Below, piece by piece: positions 1,644 through 21,234 of a DNA stretch of 22,789 nucleotides. The notes under the pieces were generated by a model that worked only from the letters and a program-made list of their open reading frames with translations, made no database searches and was not told where the DNA came from. Made by a program: the position numbers and the translations under genes. The stretch is taken from contig JBDRIL010000046.1 of NCBI GenBank assembly GCA_043815885.1, forward strand, positions 1-22,789, given 5' to 3'. The stretch comes from an archaeon (GTDB taxonomy: Archaea > Iainarchaeota > Iainarchaeia > Iainarchaeales > 1-14-0-10-31-34). Position 1 is the first letter of the stretch, and each line of letters starts with the position of its first letter.

Positions 1644-2987
1644 TTATGGCTTAAAACGTTTTTGGGATAGTGAAGCCACTATTTCTTGTTTATCGTATAT
1701 TCCTTTATGGGAATAATAATAAAAGTCGGGAAAAACAAGCGGAAATTTTTTTATTAAATGCATTATCTCCTTTTTTGTTTTTTGATTGCATTCATTCAAC
1801 ATCGTGTCGTTGTTAGCGTAATGAATGAATTTCCCTGAAAAACGCAGCAAGTGCTTGAATTCAAAATAAAGTGCTGATAATGGAACAGGGCTCAGTAAAG
1901 AAAGATGAACTGACACTCTTTCTTTGAAAAAATATTTGTATGCATTCATATAAAAAACACTTTTTTTAAGGTCTTCAACTGATTCAAATGGAAACCCCCA
2001 TATAAAGCTAATGAATGTTAATTTGAATTGGTCTGCGGATTTTTTTATTACCTTGTCAGCCAACGCAAAGTTAAAAGGCTTGTTTATTCTTCTAAGGATT
2101 TTATCTGAAGCGGACTCAACGCCATACAGCACTGTAATAAACCCGCTTCCAATTAATTTTTTCATTAGCTTAGAATCCATGCAGTTTAAATTAGCCGAAA
2201 AACCACAGTCAACATCTAGTTTTTCTTTTTTGATTTTTTCACAAATGGAAAGAACTCTTTTCCTGTCAAACAAAAAATTGTCATCATTAAACCTGATGCA
2301 TTTCTTTGACTTTGAGGCAATCAACTTGATTTCTTCAATTACGTTGTCCGGGCTTCTCGCAGTGATTTGGTGGCTCCAAAAAGCACAATTATTGCAAAAA
2401 GTACAATTAAACCTGCATCCCCTCGAGGTCATTAAACTATTGAAATTGTATTTTTTTAGTTTTATTTTGTGGCATGCCGGAAAGGGCAGTTCATCCAAAT
2501 CAACGATTCTTTTCCTGGGCCCAGTAAAAGCAACATTCCCCTTGTCTTTAAAAAAAATTCCTTTCACATAACGCAAATCTTTTTCTTTCTGCAGTGAATC
2601 CAACAAATCAACTATTGTTAGTTCCCCTTCGCCTCTGGCAATTATGTCTGCTTCATTGAAGTTTTTCAACAGGTTTTCTTCAACCCCCGCCACTCCAGGC
2701 CCTCCTAAAATAATTTTTTTCTCAGGAAACTTGGCCTTCAATTCCCTTAAGCATAACAAAACAAAAGGAAGCAATTCATCCGAAACACTTATTCCAATAA
2801 CATCGGAAGAATTTTTCATGAAAGAAACAAATTTTTTCGGGTCATAGGGGTCCTTAAAAGAATTCAGCTGGTAATCACGAAAGTCAACTGAAAAACCCTT
2901 AGATTCAAGGAAGGAAGTCAGATACAAAGAACCTAAAGGAACTCCCTTCTGGGAAATATTGTTCATATTCAATAGTGTAATGTCCAT
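1644..2987 (-). CDS. Cobalamin (B12)-binding radical SAM protein (class B methyltransferase-like)
   Basis: N-terminal PLGSLYL, IILGGP and RGEGE B12-domain motifs; TSRGCRFNCTFC (CxxxCxxC); FNDDNF, GVESAS, FIWGFPFES. Confidence 0.95.
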   Translation of the reverse strand: MDITLLNMNNISQKGVPLGSLYLTSFLESKGFSVDFRDYQLNSFKDPYDPKKFVSFMKNSSDVIGISVSDELLPFVLLCLRELKAKFPEKKIILGGPGVAGVEENLLKNFNEADIIARGEGELTIVDLLDSLQKEKDLRYVKGIFFKDKGNVAFTGPRKRIVDLDELPFPACHKIKLKKYNFNSLMTSRGCRFNCTFCNNCAFWSHQITARSPDNVIEEIKLIASKSKKCIRFNDDNFLFDRKRVLSICEKIKKEKLDVDCGFSANLNCMDSKLMKKLIGSGFITVLYGVESASDKILRRINKPFNFALADKVIKKSADQFKLTFISFIWGFPFESVEDLKKSVFYMNAYKYFFKERVSVHLSLLSPVPLSALYFEFKHLLRFSGKFIHYANNDTMLNECNQKTKKEIMHLIKKFPLVFPDFYYYSHKGIYDKQEIVASLSQKRFKP

Positions 2988-3075
2988 TCTTTCCGACCAA
3001 CCTTTTCCATTAAAACAGCCTTATTAAGCCAATCAAAAAAAATCCAGCAATCTTTTTTTAACTCTATCAATAATC

Positions 3076-10951: not shown

Positions 10952-11662
10952 ATGAACAAAAAAACACTGGTTGCAGCAGTATTGATGGTGGCAGTAATTG
11001 CCCTGGTTTCAGTATATATTTACATGCAGGAAGCATTCAATTATGAAGCCTTCTTGTTTGCTTTTGCGCCAACTTTTTTGGCTGGATTGATTGTAGTAAT
11101 GGTTATTTACTTTATAGTGAAAAGAAGGCATCAGCCGATTGTTGCGCCAGCAGCTGAAATGATAGAACAAAAGGAAATAAAGACAATGGACAAAATGAAG
11201 GTGGAAGAAAAAGAGCCAAAGGGAATGGAGCAATTCGAGGAAATGGAAATAAAGGAGAAAGCCGAAGAAATGCCTGAAGAGCGAATAGAGGAAGATATTC
11301 CTGAAGAAGGAAAAGAAATGATTCCTGAAGAAGGAATAGAAGAAAAACAGGAATTTAAAGAAAGAGAGATTAAAGAAGAAATTAAGGAAGAAAAAAAAGA
11401 CATAATACCAAAAGAAATAGAGGAAGAGAAGGGATTCCGAAGGGAAGAAAAAAGAGTTGAAGAGAAAAAGCTTAGCCTGAAAGAACTCATTCCATCAAAA
11501 GGATTAAGCCCAGATGAAGAAGAAGAAGTAACAAAGATAGTTGATGCATTGAAGGAAAAAAAGGAGCAGTACACGCAGGAAGAAACCAGGGAAGCAATGA
11601 AGAGACTAGGGTATAATGAAAGCATAATAAGTGAGGCACTTAAAAGAATTTACTCTGAATAA
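10952..11662 (+). CDS. Hypothetical membrane protein: two N-terminal hydrophobic segments, Glu/Lys-rich linker, small C-terminal helical module
   Basis: Hydrophobic aa 6-24 and 33-56; low-complexity linker with PEE repeats; C-terminus EAMKRLGYNESIISEALKRIY. Confidence 0.8.
   Translation: MNKKTLVAAVLMVAVIALVSVYIYMQEAFNYEAFLFAFAPTFLAGLIVVMVIYFIVKRRHQPIVAPAAEMIEQKEIKTMDKMKVEEKEPKGMEQFEEMEIKEKAEEMPEERIEEDIPEEGKEMIPEEGIEEKQEFKEREIKEEIKEEKKDIIPKEIEEEKGFRREEKRVEEKKLSLKELIPSKGLSPDEEEEVTKIVDALKEKKEQYTQEETREAMKRLGYNESIISEALKRIYSE
11297..11336 (+). repeat. 16-nt direct repeat (ATTCCTGAAGAAGGAA, 24-nt period) encoding IPEEG
   Basis: Identical copies at 11297-11312 and 11321-11336; a degenerate MPEER copy lies upstream. 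Confidence 0.7.
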
Positions 11663-11712: not shown

Positions 11713-12852
11713 TTGAACAAATTTTTATTGATTGCAGGAATTCTGCTGTTTTTTCTGATTTTACTAGCCAATGTTAACGCTCAGGAGGACTTGAACAGTT
11801 CAAGGGAATGGAGGATTGAATTCAACAAGGATTTAAGCGTAAAACAGGATTTTAAGGTTGAGGGAGTCCTCCCGGAAGAAGTGATTGGATGGGGGAAGGA
11901 TTGTTCAAAAAAGTTAATGGAAAAAATAGATGCAAAGGCATTGGTATTGCAGAACAACATAGTTAAATTAAAGGCAGATCCTAACCTGGATGAAAACGAG
12001 GTAAAGGAATTAAGTGAAGTCATTTACTCTGCAGTAAACGCTCTAATCAGGATGAAGTCAACTATATCATGCACTCTATTAAAGGAAGAAGGCGGGAAAG
12101 GAGTATTGAATTACTCCTTTGTATTGGATAAAGGAGTCATTGATTCATTGAAGAGAGCAAAGGAAGATGAAAGAAATTTCTCAATAAGCAGGGACAACGG
12201 AAAGATAAGGGTTTCCTTCAAGGCTATTGAAGACAATGAATTAATTGAAAGCAAGACAAAGAAGCTTACAATAAAGGTGGAAGGAGAATTAATTGAATTA
12301 AAAAGAGAGGACTACAAACAGGTTGGAGCAGAATTTGTTTTCCCTGATTTTGATTCAGTTGAAAACAGTACAGTAAAACTGGTTTATGGGATTGAAGAAG
12401 ATGGAAAAAAAGAGGAAGAAGGATCATTGTTTGGGGGGCTTGATTCAATCTTTTCTGGAATAACCGCCTCAAGCATATTGCTGTATGGAGCAATTGGATT
12501 TGTTTTTCTTGTAATCGTTATTGCTGTAATCATTTTAGTGAAGAAAATAAAGAAGAAAAAAGAGAAAGAAGAGGAAGAGGAAGAATTAACTGATAAAGAA
12601 AAGCTTGAGAAAAAGGTATTGGATAGGGGAAAGGGAAAATCCGCTGCCTATATGGAAGAGGTTGAAGAAAAGCCGGGTAAAAGAGAAAAAAAAGGAAACG
12701 GAAAAGAGGAAGTAGAAAAGTTATATGATATCCTCAAAGAACATAAAGATGAATTCGATTACGAACAGGTAAAAAAAGCTGTATTGATACAGGGTTATTC
12801 AGAAGGAGTAGCTGAAAACGTAGCAAAAAAAATTTATCCAAAAGAAGGGTAA
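11713..12852 (+). CDS. Hypothetical single-pass membrane protein (signal peptide, external domain, TM, charged tail, C-terminal helical module)
   Basis: TTG start; signal peptide ending ANVNA; TM LLYGAIGFVFLVIVIAVIILV followed by KKIKKKK; TATA-like TTTAAATA at 11672-11679. Confidence 0.8.
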   Translation: MNKFLLIAGILLFFLILLANVNAQEDLNSSREWRIEFNKDLSVKQDFKVEGVLPEEVIGWGKDCSKKLMEKIDAKALVLQNNIVKLKADPNLDENEVKELSEVIYSAVNALIRMKSTISCTLLKEEGGKGVLNYSFVLDKGVIDSLKRAKEDERNFSISRDNGKIRVSFKAIEDNELIESKTKKLTIKVEGELIELKREDYKQVGAEFVFPDFDSVENSTVKLVYGIEEDGKKEEEGSLFGGLDSIFSGITASSILLYGAIGFVFLVIVIAVIILVKKIKKKKEKEEEEEELTDKEKLEKKVLDRGKGKSAAYMEEVEEKPGKREKKGNGKEEVEKLYDILKEHKDEFDYEQVKKAVLIQGYSEGVAENVAKKIYPKEG

Positions 12853-12862
12853 GCAGGAATCC

Positions 12863-15379
12863 CTATAATCCTGCTTCTTTCCTTAGTTTTTCAGCTAAAT
12901 CTGTTTTCTCCCAAGTGAATTCCGCTTCCTCTCTACCGAAATGACCGTAAACTGAAGTCTTTCTGTAGATCGGCCTTCTAAGATTAAGTTGTTCTATCAT
13001 TCCATTTGCGTCAAGCTTGAAGTGCTTCTTCACTAAATCGTATATTTTTCCGTTTTCAAGCTTTTCTGTTCTGAAAGTGTCAATCATCAGTGAGAGCGGT
13101 TCACTGCCTCCAATTACATATGAAAGCTGGACTTCACATTTCTCAGCCAAACCTGCTTTCACTAAATTCTTTGCAATATATCTCGCCATGTATGCCGCTG
13201 TTTTGTCCACTTTCGTACAGTCCTTCCCGGAATTATGGCAAACGAATCCATTTGCAGTAAATGTGTGGCTCTCTGGCACTAATAAATCATATACGTGAGC
13301 AAAGGATTCTTTAATGCTTTCTACTTTTGCATAATAGTTATTCATTTCAAGCAATAATTCAAGTTCCCTGAACTCTTTCTCATCCTCCAGTTTTTCCTTA
13401 TACACTTTCAAAAAATCCTTGAGCTTATTGTAGGTTAATTCTTTTGTTGCCTTTCCTTTCCTGCTTCTTGCAAACCTTCCAATTTTAGATTCATCTCTTT
13501 GTCTTTCTCTCGATATTAATTTATCCCAAAGTTTTTTGATCTTTTTTTGTTGATGTGAAATAATGAAATACTCTTTACATGAATCTATGCTTATTGAATT
13601 TAGTAATTTTTGTTTCCTTGGCAAACAAAACCCTATTTCTTCTTTAAAAATCTTAACGCTCTCCATACCTTTTATCCTTAAGGCATAAATTAGCCTTCTA
13701 GTTGTTACTTCCCTTTCTTTGATTTTAGATTTTGCCCCAATCCTGTCTATCGTTTGAATGTTTGAAATTATCCCAAAATTCAAGAGCAGCTGCTGAACCT
13801 GTTGGACCAATGTATATGAAGTTGAAACAAGCTTTATGTCAGGAAAGCTTTTATTTCTCCCATGGAATCTTACGCCGCCATCAGTATCAAATAATCCTCT
13901 CAGAAATGCTGCCACTGCTTCGTTTGGGGCATTGAAAATTTTTTCAGGAACTTCCTTTTCCCAAGCTCTTTTATAATCCAAACCAACATATTTTAAGTAG
14001 GCTCTAAGTTCAACACCGGCAACATACGCCCAGTGCCCAAAAAATTTCCATTTGTTTCCAAAAAGTTTATTATATAACTTCCCAATATTTTTTTTCTGTT
14101 CTTCTTCACAAACACAGATAGCAATTGCACCATCCATCATACAATTACCGTCTCCAACCAACAAACCGAGCAGGTACGCATAATCTGATGTTAATTCTTT
14201 TGGCAAATTAAATTTATTTTTTCTTTTCTCTTTAGTTCCTCTCTTGTAAGTATATGAAAAACTGCTTAAATCAACTTTTTCTCCAAATAATCTATTTTTC
14301 CTATGGATTGCAACAAAATCCCCTATCTTTAATTTGTCAAACCTTCTCCAAACATAATTTCCTTGCACATCAATGACTCTAATACATTGATTTTTTGAAC
14401 CCTCTAATGAATAACCGTCTTTTGTTGAAACCACAAGTGTTTCCATTACATCATTATCATACCACTCTTTTGCTGGCATTGGATGTATATCCGTTTTAAT
14501 TAATAAATTATTTTTTACAGTATCGCTTAAGTTCTTTATTTTTTCTAAACCTTTCTGAGTGTTTACTAAAGAGTTTCCTTCAATACAGAAGGCGCCTCCT
14601 CCGTGATTGCCTACTCCTCCATAGGTGTCAGCAATAATCTTTCTTCCAGTCATTCCTGAATCAGCCACTGGGCCTCCAATAACAAATCTTCCAGTATTGT
14701 TGATGAAGTAATTGGTTTTGTCGTCAATCCATTTCTTGCATACAGGCTTTATCACTTTTTCCTTTATGTCTTTCCTCAGTTTTTCAATCTCTACATCTGG
14801 GTCGTGCTGTGCTGCAATAACCACTGAATCAATTCTCTTGGGTTTCCCGTCAATGTATTCTGCTGTAATCTGAGTTTTTCCGTCAGGCCGAAGGTAAGGC
14901 AGTTCCCCGGATTTCCTTACTTCACTTAATTTTTTTGCAAGCCTGTTGGAAAGAAGTATTGGAAGAGGCATTAATTCAGGCGTTTCGTTGGTGGCATACC
15001 CAGACATCATTCCCTGGTCGCCTGCTCCTAACTGCTTATCTCCTCCTTCATCCACCCCCATAGCAATATCCGCAGACTGCTCATGGATTGAGGTAAGCAC
15101 TCCAACAGTATTATAGTCAAATCCATACTTTGGATCGTCATAGCCAATTTCCTTCAATACCTTTCTAACAAGCTTTGATACATCAACATAGGTTTTGGTT
15201 GTAACCTCTCCAGTCACTATCACAAAACCCATTCCAACCATGCACTCGCATGCAACCCTTGAATTAGGGTCGCCCTTCATAATGTAATCCAGGATCTCAT
15301 CACTTATCTGGTCGCATACCTTATCCGGATGGCCTTCAGTCATTGCCTCTGAAGTAAACAAAAAATTGCCTGTTCTCAT
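12863..15379 (-). CDS. metK: S-adenosylmethionine synthetase, bacterial/eukaryotic type, intein-containing (838-aa precursor, 386 aa spliced)
   Basis: [70 protein letters not shown]. Likely start is the ATG at 15379, with GGAGG 7 nt upstream (15387-15391). Confidence 0.97.
13232..14587 (-). mobile_element. Intein (452 aa) with LAGLIDADG homing endonuclease, inserted in metK
   Basis: Starts CIEGNSLV (block A) and ends [21 protein letters not shown] (blocks F/G), followed by Ser+1. Two dodecapeptide motifs: [10 protein letters not shown] and [10 protein letters not shown]. Excision restores GGGAFSGKD. Confidence 0.97.
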
Positions 15380-15462
15380 AAAATTTCCTCCTCTAAAAAG
15401 ACGATAGAAGAAAAAAAGAAGCATATATTTATAATAATAATTACAATGATAAATATTCATAA

Positions 15463-16056
15463 ATGAATAATAAAACTCCCTCCCTGCTTCCGGAACTGGA
15501 AGAGATAAAGGCAAAGAGAAAAGAATTGGGTATGACACAGACAGGATTGTCAAAACTGAGTGGTGTTTCCCAGCCATTGATTGCAAAGATTGAGGCAGGA
15601 AAGGTAATTCCTTCCTATGAGAACGCAAGGAAACTGTTTAATTCGCTTGGAAAAATAAGTACTGAAAGCTTTGTTACTGCGGAAGAGATAATGCATTTTC
15701 CACTGATTCATGTGAATGAAAATGAATCCATTGAGAGGGTAATTAAATTAATGAACAGGCATGGAATAAGCCAGATTCCTGTTTTGATGAAGAATGCCTC
15801 TATAGGGGTTATTGCAGAGGAAACCATGATTGAAAGAATCTCCAGGAGAAAGTCTTCAACCAAGGCAAAAGAAGTAATGGAATCCTCCCTCCCGATAATT
15901 GAAAGCTCGACAGAAATGGCTGCAATCAGCTCGCTTCTCAATTACAACAAGGCGGTGTTGGTGAGAAAAAAGGGAAGAATGGCGGGAATAATAACCAAAA
16001 CAGACCTGATTCAGAGAATGGTTAAGGCAGAGAGAAAAACAAGAAAAAAAGAGTAA
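15463..16056 (+). CDS. Transcriptional regulator, XRE-type HTH plus tandem CBS domains (COG3620-like)
   Basis: [29 protein letters not shown] (HTH); TAEEIM...GISQIPV...GIITKTDL (CBS pair). Confidence 0.92.
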
Positions 16057-16963: not shown

Positions 16964-18841
16964 ATGAAGAAATGGTTTTTGACAGTGATTTTCCTGGCAA
17001 TAATTCTATCCACAGTAAACGCAGGCATATATGCAGAAAAGGATTCAGTCACAATAGAGCCAGACAGCGGAATAAATGTAATGCTGTTCCTAGAGAATGA
17101 TTCAAGCGAAGACACAAAATTTGAATTATATGCAAAAAGCCATTCTCCTTACATTCAGGCAGAACTTCCATTGGATGAAGTGTTCCTGAATTCAGGGGAA
17201 AGCACTTCATTTAACCTGAATATTTATGCTTTAGAGGATGCTCCAAAAGGATTTTCATTAATCGAGGTAAGAATGGAGAACGGTTTTACGGATACTGCTT
17301 TTATTGGAGTAATGATTGCAAAGGAAGATGATTTCAGGGACAATTTACTGGAAATAACTGCTTTTGATAAAAAGCTCTGCAGAAAGGAAGAGGGAAGCAT
17401 TAACATCAGGATAGAGAATAAAGCTGACTTCACTCAGGAAATTGAGCTTTACCTTAATTCTGAAACAATGAATGCAAGCCTTGAACCAGACTACCTGGAA
17501 CTGCTTTCAAATGAAGTAAAGTATGTTCAATTGGTTGTTCCTGCATATCCTGTGCTGGGAGAAGGAACTCATTCAGTGGAATTAATGATTGAAACCACTT
17601 CTTCAATAATGAAGAAGGAAATTGAATTTGAGATAATTGAATGCTCTGGGGTGGAAGAACTATTTTCCCTTAACCTTGAAGGAGAATGCATTAGAGTCAG
17701 CAAGGGTTCATTCAAGGAAATCAATTACAGCATTGAAAACCTTTCAGAAACAGAACAGGAAATAAATATTGCAATTACAAGTGATTTGCTGTTGGATTAC
17801 AGCAAGAAAAGAATTTTCCTGGATGAAGATGAGAAAGCAGAACTTTCATTCACTGTTGAAGCAGACAAAGACACTGGATACGGAAAGCATTTGGTGGAAG
17901 TGTTTGCATTCAATGACTCCTATTACGAGAAAAGGACTGCATGTGTTTATGTAGAGCAAATGCATGAATTCAAGGCAAGGCTATTGAATAACAATTTACA
18001 AATAGAGAGAGGCACTACAGCAATATTTGAAGTAGAGGTAGAGAATACAGGGGACTATGACGAGGACTTCCATATAAGCGTCAGAGAAAAGCCAAGAGAA
18101 GTAAAAGTGATTTTCAGTGAAGAAGATTTTTTGGTTAGAAAGGGAGAAAGTGAAACCATCTATGTTTCAGTTACTCCTTCTCTTGAAGCATATTTGGGAG
18201 AAAATGAAATCGAGTTAAGGCTAAGGAATTCAGAAACACTCACTAAAACCCTTAAATTCAAGGTAGTGGAGGAAGGGACTCCCCCTGAAAGAGAAAATGC
18301 AGTGGAATTCAAGACTTTCCCTAAAAAGATTGTATTGAATAGAGGGGATTCAATTGAAGTGTTTTTAGTGATTGAAAACATTTCAGGAAAGGAACTGAAA
18401 GATGTTGAGTTTAAAGCAGAAGGACTGCCTTTTGGAGTAAAAATGGATGAAGTAATGCTCTCTCTTATTGAAGAGGGAGAGCTGATTGAGGTAAGCACTA
18501 ACATTAGTGCAACTGAAGGCGCAGTAAAGGAAAATACTTCCTTTACTCTTGTAGTGGAAAATGATTTATTCAGGGAAGAAAAAGAAATAGAATTAGAGGT
18601 AAGGGAAGACAATCCCTACTACAGCAATTCCGAGAACATGAGTGTAAAGACAACTGTTGAAAAGGAGGATTCATTCCTTGCAGGATTGATTGGTTTGGGA
18701 AGCAATAGTTTTGCTGGATTGCTTGGAGGAATTATTATTGTGTTAGTCGTATTAATATTAATTGTAGTGGCTTTATCCTCTAATCCTTCTCCTAGAAGGT
18801 TAAGGTACAGGGGAGAAACTGTAGGAGGCATTGTTAAATGA
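16964..18841 (+). CDS. Secreted, C-terminally anchored acidic protein with ~5 Ig-like (COG1470-like) repeats
   Basis: AGGAG RBS; signal peptide ending TVNA; ~100-aa repeats (LEND, IENK, IENL, VENTG, IENISG, each followed by L..GE-type motifs); C-terminal TM and RRLRYR tail. Confidence 0.8.
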   Translation: MKKWFLTVIFLAIILSTVNAGIYAEKDSVTIEPDSGINVMLFLENDSSEDTKFELYAKSHSPYIQAELPLDEVFLNSGESTSFNLNIYALEDAPKGFSLIEVRMENGFTDTAFIGVMIAKEDDFRDNLLEITAFDKKLCRKEEGSINIRIENKADFTQEIELYLNSETMNASLEPDYLELLSNEVKYVQLVVPAYPVLGEGTHSVELMIETTSSIMKKEIEFEIIECSGVEELFSLNLEGECIRVSKGSFKEINYSIENLSETEQEINIAITSDLLLDYSKKRIFLDEDEKAELSFTVEADKDTGYGKHLVEVFAFNDSYYEKRTACVYVEQMHEFKARLLNNNLQIERGTTAIFEVEVENTGDYDEDFHISVREKPREVKVIFSEEDFLVRKGESETIYVSVTPSLEAYLGENEIELRLRNSETLTKTLKFKVVEEGTPPERENAVEFKTFPKKIVLNRGDSIEVFLVIENISGKELKDVEFKAEGLPFGVKMDEVMLSLIEEGELIEVSTNISATEGAVKENTSFTLVVENDLFREEKEIELEVREDNPYYSNSENMSVKTTVEKEDSFLAGLIGLGSNSFAGLLGGIIIVLVVLILIVVALSSNPSPRRLRYRGETVGGIVK

Positions 18842-21234
18842 ACAAATATATTTCGCTTGGATTAATATTAATCTTCCTTGGCCTGAGTGTCAAGGCAGCA
18901 ACACTGGAGGGAGACTTTACTGCAGAAGCATACCAGTCACAGCCATTGGAAAAGGTATTCACTCTATGCAATGATTCCAGTCACAGTGAAAGCTATTCAA
19001 TAGATGAATTCGGGGAATACTCTTACTGGATGCATGTAAAGCCAGAAGAACTCTCGCTCTCTGCAGGCAAATGTGAAGATATTTATGCTTTTATTACTCC
19101 AGAACCTTATGCAAGGGAAGGAAGCTATGACTTAGGAATAAGGATAAGGAATTCAAAGACACTGGATAAAATAATTGAATTAACTGTATTACAGGGCCAC
19201 ACACTGTCTCTTTCAGTAGATGAATCCTACAAGGAAGCTTCTCAATGTGAAGAAAGAAATTATTCATTAAAAATAAAGAATACTGGAATATTTGAGGAAA
19301 GAGCAAAAATAGAAGTGGAAGGACTGAATGAATTATGGTTTGAATTTGACTCAGATGAACCAGTACTGGAAAAAAATGAATCCACTACAGTAAGACTTTC
19401 AGTTAAAGCTCCATGCAATGCAGAAAGAAAGGCATACGAATTCACTGTAAAGGCATCAATACCTTACACTGATTTTGAAACAGAAGAAGTTCTTACATAT
19501 AAAGTAGTTAATGAACAGGAAGTAATGATTGACGTAAAGGAAGAGGTCAGCGCGTGCAAGGACAGCACAGAAACAGAAGAAATTACTTTCAAGAATAACG
19601 GAAGATTGGATGATGAGTTAAAACTTCAATTGATTGGCCCTGAATGGGTTCTTCTTGAAAAAGAAAGCATTAGTATTGGAGAAGGAGAAAGCAAGAGCAT
19701 TGACCTTATATTTGAGAAAAACGATGAAGAGGAAGGAGTGTATGAAGCTGAAATAAGGGTTATTTCAGACAGATTCAATACCTCTTACACTCAAAAATTC
19801 GATATCTCCCTGAAAGACTGTTATGGACTGAAACTGGAGAAAGTAGAGGGAGAAGCCACGAGCTGCCTGGAAGAAGAATTCAGCTATGTGTTTTCTTTAA
19901 CCAATACAGGATTAAAGGAAGTAGAGCTAAAACTTTCTTCAACCGGAATTCCGGCAGAAATAGAAAACAGTTCTTTAACAATACAGCCAGGAGAGAGCGA
20001 AGAAATTGAAGTAAAATTCAATTTAGAGAAGGAAGAAAAAGGAAGCAAGCAATTCAAGTTTATTGTTGATTCAGCTTACTTCACTAAAACAGCTGAATAC
20101 GAGATTGAATTATTGGATTGCTTTAATGCAGGAATTGAAGTAAAGGAATTAAGGCTATGCAAGTGCGTTCCAATGCATTCATTCTTTACAGTAAGCAATC
20201 CAGGAAAGGCAGTACAGACTTTTTCAATTACCTCTAGTGTTGAATGGATTGAACCAGAATTAGAGGAAATAGAACTCCAGCCAGATGAAACCAAAGAAAT
20301 AAAGCTAATAATGGATACCCCTTGTGATGCAACTGAAACAGAGTATGGAATAAAGGTTGAATCAGAGAAAAACCTTGTGAGTGACACCAAAGGAATTATT
20401 TACGAAAGAAAGAAGCAATGCTTTGGAATAGAAATGACTAACTCTCAAGGGCCAGTGGACGTTAATGCAGGAAAGGGAAGCATTGAAACCCTTTACATTA
20501 CAAACAACGGAGTAACAAAGCAAAAGGTAACTGTAAGAGTGGAAGACAATGACTGGATTTTCTTTGATCCAAAAGTAGTAGAGATTGGTGCAGGGGAAAC
20601 AAAAGAAGTGTATGTTTACTTTTCTCCTCCGCTTGATTTTGGGGAAGAGGAAGTAATAGTAAACATAGAAGCAATGACTGACTATGGCTATAGAGCAGAG
20701 GAAACATTGAAATTGAAGGTAGCTGCAGGAGGAATTGATTTAGAAATCTCTCCGGAAGAAATCTCAGTTGAAGGAATAAAGGTAACAGAGATAAAGGACA
20801 CAAAGGAAAAGGAATTAGAACTTTCAATAAAGTTGACCAACAACACTGGAAGTAGTTTAAAGATTGAAGACATTAATTCTCCTAGGTATGCCCTGTCTTA
20901 CAATATAAAGAATCCAGTGCTGAAGAAGGGCGAATCAACTGTAATTGAATTAACCTTCAGAGTAGGAGAAGAAGTTGATTTGTCAAGCCTGCTTCTTCCT
21001 TTAAGCCTTAATACTGATAAGGGAGTGTACGAGAAAGGAGTATTGATTGAGGTAGAGGAAGAGAAGGAAACAGAAACCCCTGCTGGGTTAGCTGTATTTA
21101 CTTCTGCGCAAAGCACTACAGTTGTATTGCTAATAATAGTGATTGTACTGATTATTGCTTTCATTGCATTGAAGGCAAAGGAAGCAGAAGAAGAAAAGAA
21201 GCCAAGAAAAAGAACCAGAAAAAAGAAGGAATAA
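18838..21234 (+). CDS. Secreted, C-terminally anchored acidic protein with ~7 Ig-like repeats and many cysteines
   Basis: ATGA overlap with the previous gene; signal peptide ending SVKA; recurring IKNTG/FKNNG/LTNTG/VSNPG/ITNNG/LTNNTG and I.PGES/L.PDET/I.AGET motifs; C-terminal TM and KKPRKRTRKKKE tail. Confidence 0.8.
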   Translation: MNKYISLGLILIFLGLSVKAATLEGDFTAEAYQSQPLEKVFTLCNDSSHSESYSIDEFGEYSYWMHVKPEELSLSAGKCEDIYAFITPEPYAREGSYDLGIRIRNSKTLDKIIELTVLQGHTLSLSVDESYKEASQCEERNYSLKIKNTGIFEERAKIEVEGLNELWFEFDSDEPVLEKNESTTVRLSVKAPCNAERKAYEFTVKASIPYTDFETEEVLTYKVVNEQEVMIDVKEEVSACKDSTETEEITFKNNGRLDDELKLQLIGPEWVLLEKESISIGEGESKSIDLIFEKNDEEEGVYEAEIRVISDRFNTSYTQKFDISLKDCYGLKLEKVEGEATSCLEEEFSYVFSLTNTGLKEVELKLSSTGIPAEIENSSLTIQPGESEEIEVKFNLEKEEKGSKQFKFIVDSAYFTKTAEYEIELLDCFNAGIEVKELRLCKCVPMHSFFTVSNPGKAVQTFSITSSVEWIEPELEEIELQPDETKEIKLIMDTPCDATETEYGIKVESEKNLVSDTKGIIYERKKQCFGIEMTNSQGPVDVNAGKGSIETLYITNNGVTKQKVTVRVEDNDWIFFDPKVVEIGAGETKEVYVYFSPPLDFGEEEVIVNIEAMTDYGYRAEETLKLKVAAGGIDLEISPEEISVEGIKVTEIKDTKEKELELSIKLTNNTGSSLKIEDINSPRYALSYNIKNPVLKKGESTVIELTFRVGEEVDLSSLLLPLSLNTDKGVYEKGVLIEVEEEKETETPAGLAVFTSAQSTTVVLLIIVIVLIIAFIALKAKEAEEEKKPRKRTRKKKE

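Follow-up and report, generated by a model that had tools for sequence, protein, structure and literature searches.

Inteins are known mainly from proteins of replication, repair and nucleotide metabolism. Those that carry LAGLIDADG endonucleases and have solved structures, namely the archaeal VMA inteins of T. litoralis and P. horikoshii (7qss, 7qsu, 7qst), PI-PfuI (1dq3) and PI-TkoII (2cw7), together with PI-SceI of yeast (1vde, 1lws), couple a Hint splicing domain to a nested double-motif endonuclease. Here, we describe an intein of the same architecture encoded within metK, the gene for S-adenosylmethionine (SAM) synthetase (MetK), on a 22,789-nucleotide stretch of DNA from an archaeon (contig JBDRIL010000046.1 of assembly GCA_043815885.1; the whole stretch is referred to as the window). 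The MetK intein shares with the solved LAGLIDADG inteins Cys1, a C-terminal His-Asn, a +1 nucleophile and a site within a conserved motif by which an essential enzyme binds nucleotides, and its structural model matches theirs with Foldseek E values of 3e-22 to 1e-8 and query-normalized TM-scores (TMq) of 0.44-0.67. It differs from them in sequence (10-19% identity), in its MetK host, in a block B glutamine and in an extra basic helical region spanning amino acids 331-415. Very probably, this element is a full-length, bifunctional class 1 intein with a nested LAGLIDADG endonuclease, situated in the triphosphate-binding loop GGGAF/SGKD (the slash marks the insertion point) of a bacterial-type MetK from a DPANN archaeon, that splices, homes and was gained horizontally.

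The metK coding sequence occupies 12863..15379 on the minus strand, as do all features of the gene and intein given below, and encodes a precursor of 838 amino acids, a bacterial/eukaryotic-type methionine adenosyltransferase containing one intein, followed by a TAG stop (12863-12865). Its start, the ATG at 15377-15379, is set by alignment to an intein-free homologue (P0121), and a ribosome-binding-like GGAGG (15387..15391) lies 8 nt upstream. A longer open reading frame from a TTG at 15628 (15628-12863) was rejected, its first 83 codons being a read-through artefact; homologues begin with MRTGNF, and the true start is therefore the ATG. The N-extein (264 amino acids, 14588..15379) ends in ...GNHGGGAF, such that the -1 residue is Phe (codon 14588-14590). 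The C-extein (122 amino acids, 12866..13231) begins with the +1 nucleophile Ser (codon 13229-13231) and carries the S-AdoMet_synt_C match. The precursor matches the Pfam S-AdoMet_synt N, M and C domains with E values of 2e-41, 1e-46 and 2e-56, and scores 540.8 bits in two stretches against the metK model TIGR01034 (cut-off 309.4). Solved MetK structures are matched at E values of 4e-95 to 1e-90, with the N-extein aligned to residues 3-262 of the E. coli MetK chain 1fug. This alignment places the insertion two residues ahead of the loop lysine, which we take to be the triphosphate-contacting Lys265.

GHPDK, GAGDQG and GGGAFSGKD are the signature motifs of MetK, with roles established in the MetK literature. 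Splicing in silico yields a MetK of 386 amino acids, the length an earlier note on this DNA had predicted, in which all three motifs are present and GGGAFSGKD, which exists only once the intein is removed, is contiguous. A protein identical to the precursor is recorded at NCBI as 'methionine adenosyltransferase [Candidatus Micrarchaeota archaeon]'. By its TIGR01034 match, the MetK of the window archaeon is of the bacterial/eukaryotic type and not the archaeal-type enzyme.

The intein itself comprises 452 amino acids (1356 nt, 13232..14587), from Cys1 (TGT, 14585-14587) to the terminal His451-Asn452 (13232-13237), between the Phe and Ser of the loop. The earlier note had given precisely these coordinates, and its list of Cys1, His-Asn, Ser+1 and two intact LAGLIDADG motifs agrees with the sequence in every item; what it overlooked is the replacement of the block B histidine by glutamine. 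The in-frame insert whose removal restores its host, with Cys1, His-Asn and Ser+1, has the features of a class 1 intein. The Hint N part (amino acids 1-125, 14213..14587), delimited by the secondary structure of the model and by alignment to the Mxe GyrA intein, holds block A (CIEGNSLV) and block B (14372..14416), the latter with Ser64 for the usual Thr and Gln67 (CAA, 14387-14389) for the usual His. Since it lacks the T-x-x-H of block B, the window intein is an atypical member of its class, not a non-member. The LAGLIDADG homing-endonuclease domain (amino acids 126-330, 13598..14212) follows, assigned from PF14528 and from Foldseek matches to I-DmoI and I-Tsp061I. Its two motifs, containing LLGLLVGDG (14144-14179) and LRGLFDTDG (13874-13909), each end in an acidic residue, Asp146 and Asp236 respectively.

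The basic, mostly helical region (amino acids 331-415, 13343..13597) separates the endonuclease domain from the C-terminal Hint strands and has helices at 347-415 in the model. In an alignment (A1) of the window intein with 65 relatives (66 rows), GKATKELTY is conserved within this region. Across the wider family the region has a mean pairwise identity of 49.7%, and it probably serves as an extra DNA-contact region. The Hint C part (amino acids 416-452, 13232..13342) covers the region of blocks F and G and carries the TIGR01443 match. Within the endonuclease domain, at amino acids 149-185, Cys149, Cys158, Cys160 and His185 are each kept in at least 90% of the 66 aligned rows and could form a metal site.

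An AlphaFold2 model of the intein (pLDDT 94.5, pTM 0.93) was compared with the PDB using Foldseek. The best matches are the TliVMA intein 7qss (E 3e-22, TMq 0.67), PI-PfuI 1dq3 (E 6e-19) and PI-TkoII 2cw7 (E 3e-16), followed by the P. horikoshii VMA intein, PI-SceI and structures of splicing domains alone (1am2, 3ifj, 4oz6). The free-standing LAGLIDADG enzymes I-DmoI and I-Tsp061I are matched with target-normalized TM-scores (TMt) of 0.64-0.70. A Hint fold is evident from the whole-intein and splicing-domain matches and from Intein_splicing PF14890, against which the intein by itself scores 37.7 bits (cut-off 35.8), while the Foldseek matches and the order of secondary-structure elements in the model reveal the duplicated alpha-beta-beta-alpha-beta-beta-alpha fold in a single chain. 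LAGLIDADG_3 (PF14528) is matched at E values of 1.7e-18 to 1e-17, and the intein C-terminus model TIGR01443 scores 28.4 bits on the precursor and 27.2 on the intein alone (cut-off 15.6). The domain and profile matches of the intein-bearing MetK are far beyond chance. Pfam, TIGRFAM, AlphaFold2 and Foldseek thus all bear out the identification as a LAGLIDADG homing-endonuclease intein.

A mechanism can be proposed because the required residues are present. The 838-residue precursor would be translated, Cys1 would attack the Phe(-1) carbonyl, the acyl group would be handed to Ser+1, and Asn452 would cyclize with the assistance of His451, releasing a 386-residue MetK in which the GGGAFSGKD loop is rejoined, together with a free 452-residue endonuclease. 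The latter, whose activity is predicted from its motifs, would cleave the fused site in metK alleles lacking the intein, and repair would copy the intein in (homing). It is reasonable to suppose that SAM synthesis in this archaeon depends on splicing.

How widespread the element is was examined by searching with the precursor among proteins of 460-1467 amino acids. Among 7998 scored candidates, 2893 matched; the counts out of 120 given below refer to the best 120 of these 2893 long MetK relatives, which are 53-100% identical to the query. All 120 combine MetK with LAGLIDADG and all bear an intein at the same site, with GGG[A/C/S][F/Y] followed by C...HN followed by SGKD, 67 of them recognized by an initial pattern and the remaining 53 by a less strict version. 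The named carriers are DPANN archaea (Micrarchaeota, Nanoarchaeota, Aenigmarchaeota and Woesearchaeota). A scan of genome contigs with the intein, using patterns drawn from poorly conserved stretches, retrieved a single locus (L001, identical with P0003), from a metagenome-assembled genome of Candidatus Iainarchaeum. Insertion of this intein is common in related uncultured archaea and abundant in DPANN MetKs. None of the source names of the 120 records mentions an intein, and the NCBIfam matches of the precursor include no model for an intein-containing MetK, a kind of 'exception' model that does exist for GyrA, RtcB and Tes. The cluster of the intein-bearing P0002 contains NCBI records of 160, 174 and 730 amino acids whose labels read 'methionine adenosyltransferase domain-containing protein' or 'partial'; intein-containing metK genes may be fragmented or truncated in some annotations of metagenome-assembled genomes.

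The catalytic columns are nearly uniform: C1, D434, H451 and N452 are kept in 120 of 120 and H441 in 112, and of the LAGLIDADG acidic residues D146 is kept in 120 and D236 in 116. Class 3 inteins lack a position-1 nucleophile and carry a Trp-Cys-Thr triad in blocks B, F and G; assignment to class 3 was rejected on the presence of Cys1 in every member, the triad columns forming no part of that decision. Intein lengths fall between 447 and 459 amino acids, with no shortened (mini-intein) form among the best 120, a sample above the lower-scoring matches where shortened forms would rank. Mean pairwise identity, computed over 7140 pairs, is 57.9% for the endonuclease domain, 52.3% for Hint N and 58.7% for Hint C. 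These values are comparable, so the endonuclease shows no decay relative to the splicing domain.

The closest relatives of the window MetK do not carry the intein. P0121, an intein-free protein of 387 amino acids that is contiguous through GGGAFSGKD, is 94% identical to the window extein, and intein-free P0122, from a cluster that includes a record labelled Candidatus Diapherotrites, is 84.5% identical. Among the best 120, the intein-bearing proteins most similar in their exteins are only 75% (P0005) and 74% (P0009) identical to it. The most similar inteins in the same sample, those of P0002, P0010 and P0003, are 71% identical to the window intein and reside in exteins just 57.5-60% identical to that of the window (P0002 60%, P0003 57.5%).

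An extein tree was built with FastTree from 238 rows, 118 with an intein and 120 without, the latter being the best 120 matches among shorter proteins; L001, a duplicate, and two rows with truncated sequences were left out. In this tree the window pairs with intein-free P0121 as its sister (support 99), and P0122 joins next; no fewer than 8 changes in intein presence are required, where shuffled data average about 80. The 118-row intein tree instead unites the window with P0002 and P0003 (Shimodaira-Hasegawa-like approximate likelihood ratio test 99), a grouping that the extein alignment rejects (delta lnL 295; approximately unbiased [AU] test, p-AU 7.6e-42). The comparison of intein and extein trees, which the earlier note had proposed, therefore reveals a conflict. 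Most likely, the window lineage gained its intein horizontally after its split from the sampled intein-free relatives. Homing into a previously empty allele would be the simplest reading, since a single gain suffices where otherwise three or more precise losses would be needed. Close samples of the window intein's donor lineage are lacking. Close intein-free MetK relatives carry the labels Aenigmarchaeota, Woesearchaeota, Diapherotrites, Nanoarchaeota and Thermoplasmata.

The most unusual residue of the element is the block B glutamine. According to PMC6333167, the block B His is the single most conserved residue of inteins and essential in many of them, a small set of natural inteins lacks it, and bulky side chains at -1 can compensate for its loss, a compensation whose occurrence in nature was the subject of speculation. 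For CDC21-1, a compensating residue is reported. The His-less inteins of that source resemble the MetK inteins in that the residue is absent from maintained lineages and the -1 residue is bulky (Leu there, Phe or Tyr in the MetK inteins). The MetK inteins differ in having another host, belonging to another clade, carrying Gln as the replacement and retaining His in 27 of 120 members.

In a phmmer alignment, S64-K-N-Q67 of the window block B lies over T-A-N-H of the Mxe GyrA intein. The block B His column holds Gln in 93 of the 120 family members and His in the remaining 27; on the 118-row intein tree (91 Q, 27 H) the two states require just 2 changes, so that Gln is an inherited trait of a large and diversified lineage. 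The -1 residue is Phe in 114 of 120 and Tyr in 6. Among 58 related full-length inteins from an exhaustive search, which include a divergent MetK intein (P0244), block B holds His in 57 and Gln in 1, so that 56 of the 57 non-MetK related inteins examined keep His. The sole exception with Gln, P0253, has Tyr at -1, and the only other aromatic -1 residue (Trp, in P0290) accompanies a retained His, an anecdotal pair. The association of Gln with an aromatic -1 residue, set beside a second MetK intein (described below) that combines Gly at -1 with a retained His, is suggestive. A conserved His35 (in K-T-D-I-H-P) was considered as a substitute for the lost His and rejected, as 52 of the 93 Gln-bearing members have Ser35.

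We infer that the first splicing step is helped by the invariant bulky Phe or Tyr at -1, possibly aided by hydrogen bonding from Gln67. The window intein is predicted to be competent for splicing despite Gln67 because members of the Gln lineage have diverged to about 50-60% identity while retaining all other catalytic residues, and because natural His-less inteins exist and bulky -1 residues can compensate (PMC6333167).

Several points weigh against an intein that splices, homes and was horizontally acquired. The block B His, essential in many inteins, is absent from the window copy, whose endonuclease could be dead. Only 12 of the 120 relatives show a higher identity in the intein than in the extein, and with the nearest sampled intein just 71% identical, no very recent transfer is documented. 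Both tree sets are samples of the best 120, so the count of 8 presence/absence changes comes from a biased sample; the AU test, run on a 138-row extein alignment, addressed a group that was named from the intein tree after the identity table was known. Third-position G+C content is 28.3% in the intein and 40.4% in the extein, and 28.3-42.4% in 16 neighbouring genes; base composition was set aside as uninformative, since the intein equals the lowest neighbouring gene, lies within their range and gives no independent sign of foreign origin. Some of these points suit an element that still splices but no longer moves, in which the endonuclease of the window copy or of the whole clade has ceased to cut and a fixed passenger is retained because selection on MetK preserves splicing. 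The 71% identity of the nearest sampled intein leaves no trace of recent homing, the loss of Asp236 in 4 of 120 members demonstrates that decay occurs, and endonuclease activity cannot be read from a sequence. This alternative is nevertheless the less likely one, though the strongest of the rivals. Both LAGLIDADG acidic residues are intact in the window intein, the endonuclease and splicing domains are equally conserved, shortened inteins are absent from the best 120, and the element is patchily present among close relatives with conflicting intein and extein trees. Intein-free close relatives, the tree conflict and the equal conservation of the two domains likewise lend support to the earlier suggestion that the element may still be mobile.

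More radical is the notion of a dead gene, in which loss of the block B His stops the first splicing step, the precursor is inactive and SAM comes from a second synthetase or from a host. DPANN archaea are often host-dependent, and a second source of SAM is possible given that 22.8 kb of the genome are visible; moreover, Gln67 replaces a His that is essential in many inteins (PMC6333167). Against this stand a frame open over 838 codons and an extein that is 94% identical to an intein-free homologue with every MetK motif kept. The 93 Gln-bearing members of the 120 also keep C1, D434, H451, N452 and S+1, which together with only 2 changes between Q and H fits long purifying selection on a working element; we regard a dead gene as highly improbable. 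A regulatory role, with splicing conditional on redox state, temperature or substrate and acting as a post-translational switch on SAM synthesis, would make retention of the intein partly adaptive and would be compatible with a splicing and homing element; it has in its favour an insertion in a nucleotide-binding loop, a kind of site discussed as arguing against a purely parasitic model (PMC4760082), and conserved cysteines (C1 in 120/120, C450 in 106/120, C149 in 117/120, with C158 and C160 in at least 90% of the 66 rows). The closest relatives, however, lack the intein, which is thus unneeded for MetK function, and conservation of the endonuclease target explains insertion at a conserved site equally well; such a switch seems improbable. 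Bolder, and offered here as speculation that we hold to be rather unlikely as a whole, is the proposal that the GGGAF/SGKD inteins form a large natural lineage that traded the block B His for Gln, enabled by the invariant aromatic -1 residue at the insertion site, and that a requirement for splicing before any SAM is made could also gate methyl-group metabolism in host-dependent DPANN cells. If true, the lineage would parallel in nature the compensation by steric strain that has been demonstrated in engineered inteins (PMC6333167), with the 27 of 120 His-bearing members as built-in controls.

Returning to the bifunctional, horizontally gained intein as the preferred account, its position among other inteins was explored with an exhaustive search using the intein alone. 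This search matched 7018 proteins at E<=1e-3 and 217 at E<=1e-30, with bit scores dropping from 517 for MetK representatives to 279 outside the MetK group. A Pfam scan of 32 top representatives found 3 to be MetK-associated; recognizable non-MetK hosts among the 32 are the terminase large subunit (2), ribonucleotide reductase (5), family-A DNA polymerase, MutS, Toprim primase, PhoH and a RecD2-like helicase. The inteins of phage terminase, ribonucleotide reductase and other hosts align over the full length of the MetK intein (amino acids 1-452) with the same block order, yet are only 27-37% identical to it. By sequence, the MetK intein is a distinct clade relative to ordinary inteins.

MetK also harbours an intein at a second site. 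Six of the 120 precursors (P0027, P0034, P0038, P0050, P0056 and P0082), about 1240 amino acids long, contain a further, seemingly unrelated intein (MetK-a) at GAGDQG/S, which is absent from the window MetK. Like the inteins at GGGAF/SGKD (MetK-b), MetK-a sits in an active-site motif, runs from Cys1 to His-Asn before Ser+1 and has two LAGLIDADG motifs. It differs from the MetK-b inteins compared in its length (405-406 amino acids), its sequence (25-30% identity), Gly at -1 and a canonical block B T-P-x-H. Ser occupies the MetK-a +1 position in 6 further MetKs that have a single intein and lack MetK-a, and in 0 of the 120 intein-free MetKs.

The novelty claimed in the earlier note was overrated insofar as all of the 120 best long relatives in the databases have an intein at the same site; it holds insofar as no description was found in print. 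No description of a MetK intein was found in literature pairing inteins with names of SAM synthetase or with DPANN, judged mostly by listing and with subscription-only papers and InBase outside the scope. The mentions in PMC3087415 are unrelated to a MetK intein. The main text of the 2015 Novikova survey (PMC4760082) contains 0 occurrences of MetK, adenosylmethionine or methionine, two of its supplementary files contain none, and its tables of the top 15 hosts are without MetK. The element is of a well-known mobile kind, but its host and site in MetK are new and apparently undescribed.

The general picture of inteins is unchanged by these findings. A populous MetK intein family, with two sites that both lie in substrate-binding motifs, brings a central metabolic enzyme into the host range of inteins, and the sites fit the reported preference for nucleotide-binding loops. 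Public annotation as 'methionine adenosyltransferase' hides these inteins, and in some DPANN lineages an essential cofactor pathway would pass through a self-splicing step. The change of His to Gln beside an invariant aromatic -1 residue furnishes a natural test set for a His-less first splicing step.

Elsewhere in the window, genes of an ordinary archaeal kind encode two GT4 glycosyltransferases, a class-V aminotransferase, an EamA transporter, a B12-binding radical SAM enzyme, a TrmB regulator and large, probable surface proteins that are immunoglobulin (Ig)-like; neither a second SAM synthetase nor another intein was found in its 22.8 kb. Rfam gave no match anywhere in the window, and there is consequently no riboswitch upstream of metK by this measure. 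Immediately upstream of metK and divergent from it lies a gene for a small protein with an HTH_3 domain and tandem CBS domains, at 15463-16056 on the plus strand of the window and at 2509-3075 on the minus strand of L001, an arrangement kept although the MetK exteins of the two loci are 57.5% identical. CBS domains often bind adenosyl ligands, and the HTH_3 and CBS protein could, by analogy, be a SAM-responsive regulator of metK.

Two adjacent genes on the plus strand (10952-11662 and 11713-12852) have products that are anchored in the membrane, carry long low-complexity tails rich in Glu and Lys, and resemble each other at their C-terminal ends (...GY(N/S)E...A..(L/V)...IY); neither has a Pfam family above cut-off. 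Two large consecutive genes at 16964-21234 on the plus strand encode proteins of 625 and 798 amino acids with weak matches to Ig-like and FixG_C-type domains, which are probably surface proteins.

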